The notes under the pieces: generated by a model
Told to the model about the DNA's origin: nothing
The model's database searches: none
What the model saw: the letters and a program-made list of their open reading frames with translations, nothing else
Source of the DNA: a virus
Strand: one strand, 5' to 3'
IMG/VR virus record: IMGVR_UViG_3300036985_006490
Coordinates: 32,001 to 96,000 of that record
DNA: 64,000 nt
Part shown: positions 1,867-26,880 of the stretch, piece after piece
Position numbering within the stretch: the first letter of the stretch is position 1
Layout: the number at the start of each line of letters is the position of its first letter
Translations under genes and position numbers: made by a program

Positions 1867-2163
1867 TTAGTTCAACTTCTTTATGTATTTACCAACACCC
1901 ATACTCATCATACTCATGAATCCATTTTTTCTCAACTTACCTTTAATCCTAATACCTGTATCCTTATCAAACCCCTCCGATTCAAAATAACCTGGACTTT
2001 CCACATCAACCACAACATAACTCCCCACATATTTTACCGTCACACATCCCGAATCCATATAAGGTTCCAAGTCATCAATAATATCAATACCCCGACCTTC
2101 TTCAATAACCTTTTGTACAATCTTAACCAATTCAGATTCCGTAAGTCTTACTATCTTTTTCAT
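1867..2163 (-). CDS. phage protein with MKKIVRLTESEL N-terminal tag
   Basis: start moved to 2163; TATTTAT at 2168-2174. Confidence 0.75.
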   Translation of the reverse strand: MKKIVRLTESELVKIVQKVIEEGRGIDIIDDLEPYMDSGCVTVKYVGSYVVVDVESPGYFESEGFDKDTGIRIKGKLRKNGFMSMMSMGVGKYIKKLN

Positions 2164-2257
2164 ATTAATAAATACCCAAAAAAGGTCATTTTTTTTCCCA
2201 AAAATTTTTTTGCGCAATATTGGGGATTATCCCCCCAAAACTGACATTCTGACAGGA

Positions 2258-2299
2258 GGGGAGGGGGGATACGGGGGGTAGGGGCCCCATATGGGGGGG
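2258..2299 (+). other. G-tract cluster, potential G-quadruplex
   Basis: GGGG-A-GGGGGG-ATAC-GGGGGG-TA-GGGG...GGGGGGG in an AT-rich genome. Confidence 0.55.
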
Positions 2300-2359
2300 T
2301 GTACCCCATGCCAGAGGGGAGGTATCAGGTATATTTATTTATCCCCCACCCCCTATGAG

Positions 2360-2422
2360 TTATCCACAAGTTGTTAGTGTGGATAACTTGTGGACATAAA
2401 CAGAATAATATATTGTGGATAA
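2360..2422. promoter_or_regulatory. DnaA box cluster 1 (three perfect boxes)
   Basis: TTATCCACA 2360-2368; TGTGGATAA 2378-2386 and 2414-2422. Confidence 0.75.
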
Positions 2423-2517
2423 GTGGTATGACAAGCGGACAGTAATCAAAACCACGTAGGGGTAACCGAAGAATGTTCTGTATGATAGTACAATTATATC
2501 TTGGTTTTGTATGCTCT

Positions 2518-2545
2518 ACTTAACATAATCCAGATTATGTAACAT
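2518..2545 (-). other. dif-like XerC/XerD recombination site
   Basis: minus strand ATGTTACATAA-TCTGGA-TTATGTTAAGT, 11-6-11 layout; XerD arm 10/11 identical to E. coli TTATGTTAAAT. Confidence 0.7.
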
Positions 2546-2644
2546 ACTTCTATAACTCCCCCAACCTTTTATTGTATTATGTGGGGAATGTTTAGACACA
2601 CCTTAAAAGTTTTGTGGACTCTAATGTCCCCGACCACAGGGAGG

Positions 2645-3082
2645 TTAGAACGTATACTTAGGTTTCCCCTCCTTACGGTTAACATGCCATGTTCCAATAG
2701 CAACAGGACGCTGTCCTTGTATCTTTAACTCAGGGGGGACAGCATCTGAATTGACAACCTCTGACATAACCTTCTCAATACTTTTCTTAATTGATTGGTA
2801 ATCATCATACGTCATATCGGTTGCTGTAATGGGGTATGACAAATCAATATAACTACCCAAGTCCGTTTCCTCCTTTAACCAACCCTTCATTTCATCATCA
2901 TACATCTCTCCCCAAATGGCGGGGTCAAAATCAAAGTTAAGGAATATACTATTGTATTTCCCCAAGTCAGATTGATTAACAAACACATCCTTAATGTAGG
3001 GGAACTCCCTTGTTAATGATCTCTTTATTAATTTGAATGTATAATTGTCATACAATTTCTCCGTACTGTACTGATATCCCAT
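2645..3082 (-). CDS. hypothetical protein
   Basis: 145-aa ORF with TATTTAT upstream. Confidence 0.7.
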   Translation of the reverse strand: MGYQYSTEKLYDNYTFKLIKRSLTREFPYIKDVFVNQSDLGKYNSIFLNFDFDPAIWGEMYDDEMKGWLKEETDLGSYIDLSYPITATDMTYDDYQSIKKSIEKVMSEVVNSDAVPPELKIQGQRPVAIGTWHVNRKEGKPKYTF

Positions 3083-3150
3083 TGAAATTTAGTTTATTAT
3101 AAATACCAAAATAGTTGGAACTTCCCCAAACTTATATTACATTTGTAATT

Positions 3151-3252
3151 ATGAGAAAAATATTGTTCTACGTGCTTTTGGGATGGTTTGCTTACAACGT
3201 GTTTAAGTGGTATAAAAAATCACAGAAACCACAAGCCCCACAGAATCCCTAA
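3151..3252 (+). CDS. 33-aa membrane peptide
   Basis: MRKILFYVLLGWFAYNVFKWYKK...; TACATTTG at 3138-3145; not in ORF track. Confidence 0.5.
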   Translation: MRKILFYVLLGWFAYNVFKWYKKSQKPQAPQNP

Positions 3253-3509
3253 CCATTCATATATTCACGTATGAGTGATTGACACTTGCCCACAATATCC
3301 TTGGGGGTAATGTCATAGTCAGTCATCTCATACAACCCTTCGACCTTCGCATCGACACAAGCCCATGAGTTCATACTCACAGGCTTTCGATGGAAGGTCT
3401 TTTTTGCTTTCTCGAAATATAAGGAACCTGCCTCAACATCGTTGAGAGAAATAATAAACCTTATTCTTCCCTCCTCCATTAACTCCATCTTATAAACAAA
3501 ATCTTCCAT
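3249..3509 (-). CDS. hypothetical protein
   Basis: start moved to MEDFVYK; TATTTAT immediately upstream, overlapping a DnaA box. Confidence 0.6.
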   Translation of the reverse strand: MEDFVYKMELMEEGRIRFIISLNDVEAGSLYFEKAKKTFHRKPVSMNSWACVDAKVEGLYEMTDYDITPKDIVGKCQSLIREYMNG

Positions 3510-3612
3510 GTGGATAAATATACACTCGGAACATATAAAAATAAAGTTATCCACACACTGACATTCTGTCCGTAGGGGGCAACATGTGGAAAACTTTTTC
3601 CTTTGTGGATAA
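3509..3612. promoter_or_regulatory. DnaA box cluster 2
   Basis: perfect boxes at 3509-3517, 3547-3555, 3604-3612; TTTTCCACA variant at 3585-3593. Confidence 0.75.
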
Positions 3613-3697
3613 ATAAATAGGGGGAAAAACTTGACTTTGACAAAATGTCAGGGGAGCTTTGCATGGGGGATAATCCCTTTGGGGGGTTTTGGTTCCC

Positions 3698-3721
3698 CCA
3701 CTCTCTACCACTTTCCCCCAC
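3698..3721 (-). promoter_or_regulatory. MraZ-type repeats, three GTGG at 10-bp period
   Basis: minus strand GTGG-GGGAAA-GTGG-TAGAGA-GTGG; a second pair GTGGG-AGAAT-GTGGG at 3982-3996. Confidence 0.45.
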
Positions 3722-4366
3722 CATTAGTAGTGTATTCATGGCTGGTTATAGTGTAATGACCACTTTTTTCCCCCTGACGATAGTGTGAAGACCATATTTT
3801 TACTATCTTTGTTTCCTAGCAAAAAAAGGAATAGTAAGTGAGAGGTCGCGTGTAACGAACGTAGTGAGTGTTATATGAGTATTCACTCATAGTTTTAACC
3901 CCCCTTCAACGAACATTAGGGTATCTTAGATGACCCCTCATATAGACCATTACATTCCCCTTCAACGACATATCGTAGATGGTGGGAGAATGTGGGACTA
4001 ATGAATATAACATCTAATTACTACCGAAGGTCTTATCTTTAATGTTATCTCACCATAGAATTGTAATGTGAAATAATATATGTTAATTCGGATCCCCACC
4101 GAATAGGTGGTGCTTATTTAACATCTCACCTTCACACAATATCACCATGTCATTTGATGTCCTGTAGTTGGCGGGGGACACTATATTAGGTGGGGACAGT
4201 TTGTCCCCATGTATAACTCTCCAAATGTGTGTTAAAAAATGAGTTTTGGAGGATTATACAGTAATAAGAATGTGGAATAAATGAACGAATGAAATGGTCG
4301 GGAACACGACAGTGTTCCTCATCCGACCATGTAGTGAGTGAATTATATTACACATTCTCTATAATA

Positions 4367-4395
4367 TAAAAACCCCCACCTTTTGAGTGAGGGTT
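4367..4395 (-). terminator. repeated terminator hairpin
   Basis: aaaaacccccaccttttgagtgagggtt, same as the copy at about 10251. Confidence 0.7.
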
Positions 4396-4443
4396 GTAAA
4401 ATTTAGAATGCCAAACTAATGACCCACAAGAATCCTCCGAGAG

Positions 4444-5886
4444 TTATTTACATTCATATTTAATTGAGTAGTCGTTAAATCTTGGGTGTTTATTTTTTAT
4501 TCTTCCTATAGTACCCCATCCTGAATTTGTTAACTTAATCACTTCAGTTAAAGTGTGGTTCCCTGATTCTATGAGTTGTCTTATATTTTTATAATCTTCA
4601 TAACTAATTAAACCTAAGAATTTCTTTTTAGATGAGGAGTCGTCTCCGAAATAGTCTACTTGGAACTCTCCCCATGTTTTATATTTAGAGTTACCGTTTT
4701 TTCTGATAGAAAGATAAAAAAACATACAGACATCGTCGTGTGAATGTTTTTTTAATTCCCTTTGATATTGAGGGAATTTACCTAACTTTTTAGTTATATA
4801 TGAAACCGCCCATTTAAAAACATCCTCATTAGAAAAATCATATAGTTTATCATATGGTGCGGAGTCTCCCAATATTTCATGAATAAGGTGATAATTCTCA
4901 CCTGCTTCGTACAAATTACGTTTGAACGATTCTGTTCCACCATGTTTAGGTAAAAAATTTACAACATTTTGAAATCCGTTTTTTCTCATTTCATCCACAG
5001 TTGGGAATCTATTAAGTGTCTTAATCAAATCACTCATGACCCTAACGCAGTAATTAACATCGTTACATTCAAAAGTTTTTTCCTCGTATACCCACGTCTC
5101 ATTAAAATGTTTATTACAGTACTTAACAAAAGTAGAAAACTTACTAAAATAGTGTGTTACCTGATGTCGTAAAGTTGGACTTAATGTATGGTATCTTGGA
5201 TTTTCACTACCAAAATAACTTTTAACATTATTATAGATATCCTCTAATTTTAACACTTTACCTGTAATTAAATCTAATGGAGAAAAATCTTTACCCTCAT
5301 TGAATTTAATATCTACCCCATTTGTTAATAGTAGTTCCTTCAAATGAGTATAAAACCAATCAACCCCTTTTTTTGAACAGTCATCATCATATGTTGATAT
5401 TAAATTATACCCTAACTTTAAATACTGTTCTTTTTTATAATCATTTCTTTTATTCAATCCCCCCCAATGTTCCCAATATATGTTATAGTCAACTAAATAA
5501 CCATCAGCCAAGTAATTTTCGAACACTTTTGGATTTCCGTCAATGTTTACCCCCCAAGCTTTCATAAAACAAAAGGCAACAAATTCATAAAACCCCCTGA
5601 AAACATTACCATCTAAATAATAACCCGATTTTTTTTCAGGATAGTCGTAACCGAGTTCATCCAAAACCTTTTTGTACCATTCAGAACGTGATAATTTTCT
5701 ATTTGCAATTGCACTAGTTATTTTTCCATACTCAGGATGATTTCTGAAGTACACAAATGGAGGAGCGAATCCAAATTTATCCACTGTAATTTGAACCGCA
5801 TCTTTTAATTCGGAATAGATTGAATCTATATTCCAAATTTCATTATGATGAACCCCACTAAGAAATTGACCTTTATCGTTTCGCAT
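4444..5886 (-). CDS. putative free-standing homing endonuclease-like protein (PD-(D/E)xK-type core plus helical repeats)
   Basis: N-terminal RNDKGQF; YLADGYL...IYWEHWG nuclease-like motif; repeated LGRFP/LGKFP-like helices; C-terminal HTH-like segment. Confidence 0.5.
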   Translation of the reverse strand: MRNDKGQFLSGVHHNEIWNIDSIYSELKDAVQITVDKFGFAPPFVYFRNHPEYGKITSAIANRKLSRSEWYKKVLDELGYDYPEKKSGYYLDGNVFRGFYEFVAFCFMKAWGVNIDGNPKVFENYLADGYLVDYNIYWEHWGGLNKRNDYKKEQYLKLGYNLISTYDDDCSKKGVDWFYTHLKELLLTNGVDIKFNEGKDFSPLDLITGKVLKLEDIYNNVKSYFGSENPRYHTLSPTLRHQVTHYFSKFSTFVKYCNKHFNETWVYEEKTFECNDVNYCVRVMSDLIKTLNRFPTVDEMRKNGFQNVVNFLPKHGGTESFKRNLYEAGENYHLIHEILGDSAPYDKLYDFSNEDVFKWAVSYITKKLGKFPQYQRELKKHSHDDVCMFFYLSIRKNGNSKYKTWGEFQVDYFGDDSSSKKKFLGLISYEDYKNIRQLIESGNHTLTEVIKLTNSGWGTIGRIKNKHPRFNDYSIKYECK

Positions 5887-5997
5887 AACACAAAGGAACT
5901 AAAAAAATTCGACTAATCCAAAAATTATGAAAAAATATCGTGGATAATCATCACAATTATTTAATATGGTGTGAGTTTCTTTATTCTATTTATTGTT

Positions 5998-6696
5998 ATG
6001 ATAAAAGACTTACTAACAATCGTTATACCTTGTAAGAATGAATCAGAGTTAATTGATTTGACTCTGAGTTTATTAAACAAACAAAAAGATATATCAGGCA
6101 CAAAAGTTATTATTGCTGATTCATCTGATGATTCTACAAGAGATATTATATTATCAGGAGACCATAGTAATTTAAACATTACTATTATTGATGGTGGGTA
6201 TCCGAGTGTTGCAAGAAACAAGGGTGCCATGATGTCCACAACCCCTTACATTTTATTCTTGGACGCTGATATATACTTAATTGATAATGCCACCATAAAA
6301 GAGTGTATGGATATTATACAGAAAGAATCATTGGAGTTATTAACCTGTAAGTTTAGATGTGAAGGTAGGTATTCATTTGTTTTCCCCATCTTTGAATTCT
6401 TTAGAGATTTATCGATTAGATATTCCCCATGTGCTATTGGAGGTTTTATGTTGTTTGAGTATGATTCCTTTATAAGAGTCGGAGGGTTTGATGATGAAGA
6501 TAAATTTGCTGAGGACTTTCATCTTAGTAGTAAAATCCCCTCTGAATCTTTTAAGGTTATAAATAAAAAGATATATACCACAGATAGAAGATTTCAGAAG
6601 AAGGGATTATTTTATATGGTTCGTGTTGCCATTTTATCCATAATGAATAAAAACAATCCCGCGTTTTTCAAATATGACCACAACTACTGGCTATAA
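5998..6696 (+). CDS. glycosyltransferase family 2
   Basis: TIVIPCKNE, IIADSSDD, ARNKGA, LFLDAD, GGFD, AED motifs. Confidence 0.9.
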   Translation: MIKDLLTIVIPCKNESELIDLTLSLLNKQKDISGTKVIIADSSDDSTRDIILSGDHSNLNITIIDGGYPSVARNKGAMMSTTPYILFLDADIYLIDNATIKECMDIIQKESLELLTCKFRCEGRYSFVFPIFEFFRDLSIRYSPCAIGGFMLFEYDSFIRVGGFDDEDKFAEDFHLSSKIPSESFKVINKKIYTTDRRFQKKGLFYMVRVAILSIMNKNNPAFFKYDHNYWL

Positions 6697-7399
6697 GGTC
6701 GTGATAATGTCCGACCTCCACTTGGGAATGAAAGACTGTAAACCTAAACGTATTCTTGAATTCCTTGATACCATCGATACAAACCTCCTTATACTTAACG
6801 GAGATATTATTGATATTGATGCTCTTCGTCGTGGTAGTAAGTGGAAAGATAAACATATGAAGGTTCTTATTAAGTTATTGGATATGTCCCGCCATACAGA
6901 GATTATCTATATCAGAGGGAACCACGATAATGATGTGAAGGATCTATATAACAGCATCCTCGGGAATATTAAATTCATGGATGAATATATGTTTTTTGCT
7001 GGTGGCAAGAAGTATCTCATATTCCATGGTGATAAGATTGATATCACAACCAAATATAAATTGCTTACTCAGATTGGTTCCATTGGTTATGACCTCGCCC
7101 TTCGTCTTAATACATGGTACAACAGGTATAGAGAATTCACAGGCAAACCATATTATAGCATTTCTAAAGTTATTAAGGAGAACTTTAAGAATGCCGTATC
7201 ATTCATTAACGACTTCGAGGTGAATGCCTGTGATTATGCTAAGACCCTTGGTTGTGATGGTGTTATCTGCGGACATATTCATATCCCCTCCGCTAAGGTT
7301 ATTAACAACATAGAATACTACAACTCAGGTGATTGGGTGGAGAACTTCTCCGCTCTTGTTCTTACTCAGGATAATGAATGGAAATTGATTGATTCTTAA
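6674..7399 (+). CDS. UDP-2,3-diacylglucosamine diphosphatase-like metallophosphoesterase (LpxH-like)
   Basis: SDLHLG, NGDIID, GNHD, HGD, CGHIH, NSGDWVE. Confidence 0.85.
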   Translation: MTTTTGYKVVIMSDLHLGMKDCKPKRILEFLDTIDTNLLILNGDIIDIDALRRGSKWKDKHMKVLIKLLDMSRHTEIIYIRGNHDNDVKDLYNSILGNIKFMDEYMFFAGGKKYLIFHGDKIDITTKYKLLTQIGSIGYDLALRLNTWYNRYREFTGKPYYSISKVIKENFKNAVSFINDFEVNACDYAKTLGCDGVICGHIHIPSAKVINNIEYYNSGDWVENFSALVLTQDNEWKLIDS

Positions 7400-26808: not shown

Positions 26809-26880
26809 TTGCAGGAGAAAGATTCGAACTTTCGACCTTCAGGTTATGAGCCTGACGAGCTTCCACTGCTCTACCCTGCG
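26809..26880 (-). tRNA. tRNA-Met(CAT), initiator-like
   Basis: cloverleaf CGCAGGG/TCCTGCA with C1xA72 mismatch, GAGC/GCTC D-stem, TCAGG-CTCATAA-CCTGA, GTTCGAATC; no encoded CCA. Confidence 0.93.

Follow-up and report, generated by a model that had tools for sequence, protein, structure and literature searches.

A 64-kb stretch of phage DNA, hereafter the window, was analysed; it corresponds to bases 32001-96000 of a 162.8-kb IMG/VR record (G000). Near its left end, at about 2190-4400, lies an island in which two mirrored arrays of DnaA boxes, arm A and arm B, bracket a cassette of three small genes, whose products have 145, 33 and 86 amino acids (aa). The boxes are conserved and laid out in a fixed order, the genes are conserved as well, and an RNA domain next to arm B has changed in a compensatory manner. 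The clade that carries this island is one of uncultured, widespread freshwater T4-like giant phages, and the complete layout was seen again in more than 60 related contigs. We propose, giving the idea about an even chance, that the island is a conserved cis-acting control locus at which DnaA would gate transcription into the cassette and perhaps also the start of phage replication.

Two mirrored arrays of DnaA boxes

The window contains eight perfect TTATCCACA boxes, compared to 1.17 expected, which is far from chance: a count of eight or more was reached in 0 of 100 shuffles, and the entire 162.8-kb record likewise holds just eight. The six perfect boxes that the first-pass annotation had reported for the island are all present, three in each arm. 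When these six sites were compared, their flanks differed and conservation stopped at 9 bp. Together with a one-mismatch site, TTTTCCACA, they fit the DnaA-box consensus TT[A/T]TNCACA (Schaper-Messer), as quoted in bioRxiv 10.1101/866236, and no longer motif is shared around them.

Relatives were found by three routes. The neighbouring metallophosphatase led to 8 viral contigs, an exact pattern spanning the arm A palindrome and TGACA repeat led to 15 viral contigs, and a profile of the 86-aa protein matched 225 metagenome stretches, 80 of which, with the 86-aa gene, were fetched for comparison. Early searches for relatives with the 145-aa protein and a neighbouring 480-aa protein gave no match, nor did an exact 22-mer scan; among GenBank phages, no DNA match and no homologue of the 86-aa protein were found.

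At each of the 61 loci with enough upstream DNA, two to four TTATNNACA sites precede the 86-aa gene. Positions 5-6 of these 166 sites read CC in 134 cases (TTATCCACA), TC in 9 (TTATTCACA), AC in 8 (TTATACACA), CA in 12, and GA, GG and TA in one case each, and 151 of the 166 fit the DnaA consensus TTATNCACA. Judging from this alignment, variation falls mostly at the single position that the DnaA consensus leaves free. The TTTTCCACA site is also conserved in this set. The positions of the arm B boxes are fixed relative to the ATG of the 86-aa gene, at -103, -84, -46 and -8; layouts recur among relatives (for example -103, -46, -8), and the last base of the -8 box (3509) is the A of the ATG. Identity to the window is 87% in box columns, compared to 71% in the other non-coding columns. 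Arm A was retained in 19 further distinct relatives with two or three boxes each, 46 of 54 boxes being TTATCCACA, and in its alignment the boxes are invariant while the spacers vary. Minority lineages, including a complete 309-kb relative (G001), have TTATTAACA or TTATCAACA at the same places.

We conclude from these comparisons that the DnaA boxes are non-random and under selection across the clade. Conservation in relatives had been suggested as a check of the whole motif set, and for the boxes it extends across a large phage clade. The natural reading is therefore that host DnaA docks there, and the boxes are probably functional sites with host DnaA as their most likely binder. A DnaA copy encoded by the phage was rejected as binder, since a search of four records (that of the window and three relatives, one of them complete) found no DnaA C-terminal domain.

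The two arms are related to each other in inverted orientation. Each presents, from outside to inside, the G/C palindrome GGGGATWATCCCC (one copy per arm), a TGACA repeat, an inward TATTTATTTAT and the boxes (Table 1). The island had been said to hold several TGACA-N3-TGTCA palindromes; a perfect copy does exist, but only one, at 3638. By shuffling or by uniqueness in the record, the dif-like site described below, GGGGATWATCCCC, TGACA-N3-TGTCA and the CCAC triplet are each rare. A cluster of G-runs had also been noticed, and it was confirmed: G/C runs of at least 4 number 19 per kb in the island and 2.3 per kb over the genome, an eight-fold enrichment, and 19 of the 82 runs of at least 5 fall inside it. 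In the short palindromes at 2257-2312, relatives keep the arms while the centres vary.

The element TATTTATTTAT consists of two copies of an upstream motif, TATTTAT. Over the whole record (224 open reading frames, ORFs, of at least 80 aa), TATTTAT precedes the ATG by 10-24 nt in 36 of the 42 ORFs carrying it, and a Shine-Dalgarno sequence is absent; examples are at 2164-2185 and 1800-1830 of the window. It appears to mark a phage-specific class of promoters or leaders; a late promoter was rejected, as the motif is not found upstream of the G001 capsid gene. In arm B, the upstream motif merges with DnaA boxes (TATTTATTTATCCACA, TATATTTATCCACATG).

Table 1. Features of the island, in window coordinates
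Feature	Position (strand)	Remarks
T-run/A-run tract, outer edge of arm A	2188-2212	nearly invariant in 10 of 11 aligned sequences
Arm A palindrome GGGGATTATCCCC	2222-2234	invariant in all relatives
Direct repeat TGACATTCTGACA, arm A	2242-2254 (+)	conserved in every aligned arm A; one variable base in the 3-nt spacer
G-run block with short G/C palindromes (CCCCATATGGGG, GGGGTGTACCCC)	2257-2312 (+)	relatives retain 4-6 G-runs
TATTTATTTAT, two overlapping copies of the phage upstream motif	2331-2341 (+)	directed into the cassette
Arm A perfect TTATCCACA boxes	2360 (+), 2378 (-), 2414 (-)	span 2360-2422; also a two-mismatch box at 2389-2397 (-)
dif-like 11-6-11 palindrome, or hairpin in the 3' region of the 145-aa gene	2518-2545	
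145-aa protein gene	2645-3082 (-)	fast-evolving; 181 homologues
33-aa hydrophobic peptide gene	3151-3252 (+)	antiparallel between two cassette genes; counterpart in relative L013
86-aa protein gene	3249-3509 (-)	conserved GSLYFEKAK...KP.SM..W.CVDAK, two invariant Cys; 568 homologues
Arm B boxes	3509 (-), 3547 (+), 3604 (-), perfect TTATCCACA; 3585 (-), one-mismatch TTTTCCACA	span 3509-3612
TGACATTCTGTC element (GACA-GAA-TGTC on minus)	3558-3571	conserved as GACAnAATGTC in a 51-sequence alignment
TGACAAAATGTCA	3638-3650	most relatives have the direct repeat TGACAnnnTGACA instead
Arm B palindrome GGGGATAATCCC(T)	3666-3678	
Three GTGG repeats (CCAC on plus)	3698-3721 (-)	CCAC-N7-CCAC-N7-CCAC, unique in the 162.8-kb record
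Two 22-nt direct repeats (ATAGTGTAATGACCAC..., ATAGTGTGAAGACCAT...)	3748-3801	
Candidate extent of structured RNA(s)	3815-4395 (+)	no ORF under four codes; no Rfam match
RNA domain, outer helix enclosing two stem-loops	3988-4132 (+)	145 nt; covariation
Two-way terminator-like hairpin	4371-4395	

The cassette, the adjoining RNA and other motifs

The island had been described as non-coding. Its coding density is indeed low, but the three conserved small genes inside it make up about 36% of its length and are present in all relatives. Alternative codes (TAG read as Q, TGA as W, TAA as Q) were tried on the remaining gaps, and none opened them. The 145-aa protein shows 21-49% identity between lineages. 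A TAcaTTTG sequence of the Bacteroidota type (TAnnTTTG) is found 6 nt before the ATG of the 33-aa gene, both in the window and in L013. In the homologue clusters of the 86-aa and 145-aa proteins every name is 'hypothetical', and neither Pfam nor PHROGs gave a match for the island genes or their small neighbours. Structure models reached a predicted local distance difference test score (pLDDT) of 75 for the 86-aa protein and of 90 (confident) for the 145-aa protein; fold searches with both models gave Foldseek E-values of at least 0.13 and a best VIA Z of 5.0, and neither PDB nor BFVD yielded a convincing match; the models give no clue to function. The possibility that the arms delimit an invertible or mobile cassette was set aside, since all relatives are collinear.

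On the other side of the 86-aa start codon, a ~0.9-kb stretch (3510 to ~4395) keeps 74-84% nucleotide identity among relatives in which the 86-aa protein keeps just 60-68%. The GA-rich hairpins already noticed here were confirmed, and they sit in a strongly structured stretch, with a fold z of about -6 on both strands relative to shuffles. In a 13-sequence alignment of 3988-4132, compensatory changes were found in 9 of 24 pairs. A covariance model of this domain, R1, gave 45 matches, and statistics were calculated on the 36 distinct rows: the proportion of paired cells was 94.3%, compared to 81.5% after shuffling and 36-56% with slid partners, and changes on both sides affected 19 of the 24 pairs (0 of 500 shuffles). 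Because of these clear compensatory base-pair changes, the alignment identifies 3988-4132 as a structured RNA. Since G-U pairs outnumber A-C pairs in these rows (53 compared to 8, on an alignment fitted to the plus strand, towards which the count leans), the structure is assigned to the plus strand, and so diverges from the 86-aa gene.

A second RNA model, covering 4126-4275, showed no covariation, as its sequences hardly differ from one another. Outside the tested domain, RNAalifold runs on blocks did not clearly favour either strand, and 3694-3850 folded better on the minus strand. With Rfam 15, only a tRNA at 26809 passed the gathering score in the window, and a search of 2100-4500 at E up to 5 returned only a spurious 34-nt viral stem-loop. 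The domain, for which Rfam has no match, is a candidate for a new phage RNA family.

The loop motif GAACGTAGTGAG (or GTAGTGAGTG) recurs in distinct hairpins, at 3857-3870 and 4319-4331 of the window, and in three relatives (L063, L053, L080) whole hairpins were swapped for other sequences that preserve it; it may be a module for protein binding or tertiary contact. Two relatives (L053:282-453 and L063:2874-3045) have ~28 nt more in the RNA domain, an additional hairpin inserted at the apical loop of its second stem; the domain therefore seems to tolerate modular insertions.

Two motifs recall sites of bacterial chromosomes. The dif-like site has the 11-6-11 layout with a conserved XerD-side arm, and the window has no second copy of its core, CATAA-N6-TTATGTTAA, for which 0.24 matches were expected at up to one mismatch. 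Its right arm is presumably one base off the E. coli XerD arm, and identical to it in two relatives. The site was found in 26 of 53 relatives (up to five substitutions allowed, 0-4 found) and, with a changed spacer, in two more; what the first-pass annotation had singled out is thus real, but kept in only about half of the relatives. The commonest arm substitution, C to T, preserves pairing as a G-U wobble on the minus strand, and for this reason a hairpin in the 3' region of the 145-aa gene would explain the site equally well as Xer; the link to Xer is a resemblance. As for the GTGG repeats, said to have a 10-bp period, three are present but their period is 11 bp; they are moderately to highly conserved in the alignment of relatives. 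MraZ operators are defined by at least three direct repeats of the GTGG/TGGG type about one helical turn apart, a pattern that the triplet satisfies, and it is in this repeat pattern that it resembles them.

The phage itself was judged on G001, with which G000 is collinear, the completeness of the G000 record being 49% according to CheckV. G001 has genes for a major capsid protein of the T4 type (Gp23, E 4e-62) and for a DNA polymerase of the B family; the polymerase gene lies ~150 kb from the island, and the closest cultured phage by capsid protein is Flavobacterium phage immuto (44% identity). On the strength of this capsid protein, of the phage's own polymerase and of the match to immuto, we assign the window's phage to the T4-like giant phages. 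A Bacteroidota host is only hinted at, by the immuto capsid match and by TAnnTTTG motifs that precede some genes.

To the right of the island, a 480-aa ORF at 4444-5886 (-), with no Pfam or PHROG match, constitutes an insertion/deletion difference between relatives: it is absent here in L009, L010 and most other relatives, and the RNA region then abuts a glycosyltransferase gene. This family-2 glycosyltransferase and a calcineurin-like phosphoesterase form a short plus-strand block at 5971-7399 (+); the phosphoesterase, the anchor used to find relatives, is 83-92% identical among them.

Possible roles of the island

We infer the following from the arrangement of the sites. Host DnaA would bind the two mirrored arrays of high-affinity boxes around the 145/33/86-aa cassette, and would gate the transcription that enters it from both sides; gating is suggested because the arm B boxes overlap the upstream motif and one of them overlaps the 86-aa start codon. 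The locus may, in addition, time the onset of phage replication by the state of the host initiator. Such a role is conceivable because T4-type origins (oriF, oriG, oriE) consist of a promoter and an unwinding element, and fire through a persistent transcript.

Several observations weigh against this proposal. TATTTAT is a positional motif only. Some lineages (L013, L034, L104, L116) have TTATYAACA only, which is off consensus at a position held strict, and immuto, the nearest cultured T4-like phage by capsid, has zero perfect boxes. The replication role in particular lacks direct support, in view of three results. No DnaA-trios, that is, no (TAG/TAA) x3 run or its complement, were found in 2151-3900. 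No distinct AT-rich element adjoins the boxes: the AT-richest 40-nt windows (0.83-0.85) lie between genes, at 3074-3170, and not beside the boxes, a comparison that the 68% AT of the genome weakens. Finally, cumulative GC skew, which had been suggested as a check, does not turn there, neither in the 162.8-kb record nor in the complete 309-kb relative; it follows gene orientation in both and is hence uninformative. Because no trios, no clearly distinct AT-rich element and no skew turn were seen, and the phage has its own replisome, an origin of the chromosomal style is not supported at the island. An origin of the T4 style, primed by a transcript, is possible by analogy.

The more ambitious form of the proposal is that of a replication-control centre, in which the transcripts of DnaA-gated inward promoters would start phage DNA synthesis with the participation of the ~0.6-kb structured RNA; we consider it rather unlikely. 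The other explanations are taken here from the less to the more improbable.

The island could act as a decoy of the datA type, sequestering or inactivating host DnaA as phage copies rise and so blocking re-initiation by the host. Each genome brings at least nine strong or near-consensus boxes, which a large burst would multiply to a number that could compete with the chromosomal sites, and no DnaA domain of phage origin was found. However, a sponge needs numbers, and not fixed positions and orientations or an overlap with a start codon and an upstream motif, and a single genome copy titrates little early in infection. The first-pass annotation had gone further and imagined joint titration of DnaA, Xer and MraZ. 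The Xer and MraZ parts have no support, the dif-like site being optional; and because box positions and orientations are fixed, one box ending on the A of a start codon, the order of the boxes points to an ordered complex and not to a mere sponge. We regard a decoy as unlikely.

Alternatively, the 9-mers may be operators of a protein encoded by the phage, such as a cassette protein, and merely resemble DnaA boxes. In some lineages both arms changed jointly to TTATYAACA, the 145-aa protein evolves as fast as its identities indicate, and inverted pairs of sites would suit a dimer. This concerted change was first read as the mark of a phage binder, and it was the preprint on T5 (10.1101/866236) that reversed our view. 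In T5, about half of the boxes of the injection-stop (iss) region are consensus, and the variants are TTATCAACA and TTATTAACA (bioRxiv 10.1101/866236). The same two variants thus occur in an unrelated, T5-like family, which argues for one common host binder. Moreover, most lineages keep the exact strongest DnaA box, variation follows TTATNCACA, and both forms are mixed within single islands (L046, L126). The models of the cassette proteins match no known fold, DNA-binding or other, which is no proof either way. Phage operators are, in our opinion, improbable.

A self-sufficient origin resembling oriC or that of a plasmid, at which DnaA would open the DNA while XerCD would resolve dimers at the dif-like site, is about as doubtful. 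It would account for the dense cluster of perfect boxes in two arms and for the 11-6-11 dif-like site that lies between these, whose right arm is presumably close to the E. coli XerD arm, and the G-rich blocks could stabilise R-loops. However, the lack of trios, of a clearly separate unwinding element and of a skew turn stands against it, as do the replisome that T4-like phages carry and their replication, which proceeds largely through recombination. In addition, about half of the relatives do without the dif-like site, whose C-to-T substitution fits an RNA hairpin equally well. For these reasons the plasmid-like replicon with Xer resolution, which was one of the two readings initially offered for this island, is not supported in the form first given.

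Very improbable is a T5-like injection stop, in which membrane-bound DnaA would hold the entering DNA at the box arrays: T5 offers the closest described architecture (mirrored DnaA/DnaA* arms, repeats and palindromes, 1-4 kb apart), but its model is itself a proposal, neither a terminal repeat nor a fixed end was observed here (the alignment of G000 continues straight across the contig ends of G001), the 3-bp box pairs and 52-bp spacers of T5 are absent, and T4-type phages usually package by headful, with permuted ends.

As far as is known, T4-type phages initiate replication independently of the host initiator. That this clade conserves a putative DnaA docking site of such exact layout suggests that it reads or manipulates the replication state of its host. 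If the replication-control reading is true, the island would be the first origin of a T4-type phage that depends on the host initiator. The spectrum of variants that it has in common with T5-like phages hints at a shared logic of DnaA-box arrays in virulent phages.

Comparison with known systems

Like GOLLD and ROOL, the island comprises several hundred conserved, ORF-free and highly structured bases in a phage genome; unlike them, its RNA has no Rfam match at E up to 5, and covariation concerns one 145-nt domain. With oriC, datA and DARS it shares clusters of high-affinity DnaA boxes in both orientations, but it differs from them by the absence of DnaA-trios, of a distinct AT-rich element, of a dnaA/dnaN neighbourhood and of a skew turn. 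datA and DARS2 require a site for IHF.

The likeness to oriF, oriG and oriE of T4 lies in the T4-like nature of the phage, in its inward upstream motifs, in a structured RNA that resembles a transcript, and in the G-rich blocks. We know of no T4 origin that uses DnaA boxes, and no account of DnaA-box arrays in T4-like phages was found in the literature searched.

The closest precedent, which the first-pass annotation had missed together with the three conserved genes and the structured RNA, is that of the T5-like phages, whose iss region carries two mirrored arms of DnaA boxes (Davison 2020, bioRxiv 10.1101/866236). The eight boxes of T5 form pairs with 3 bp between partners and 52-bp spacers, and are situated in a terminal repeat of a phage with fixed ends (bioRxiv 10.1101/866236). 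In the island, in contrast, boxes are spaced by about 18-57 bp, with gaps of 9-29 bp between neighbours, and the T5 pairs and spacers are not found. The island arms bracket three genes, a structured RNA adjoins arm B, and both arms contain, in addition, a G/C palindrome, TGACA repeats and G-runs. The phage is T4-like, and no terminal repeat was seen, IMG/VR classing the records as linear without end repeats. The likeness is nevertheless extensive: both systems consist of a gene-poor stretch rich in repeats and palindromes, with two mirrored arms 1-4 kb apart; in both, TTATCCACA is the commonest box and the off-consensus forms TTATCAACA and TTATTAACA occur; and both are kept throughout a phage family, the genes next to them having diverged.

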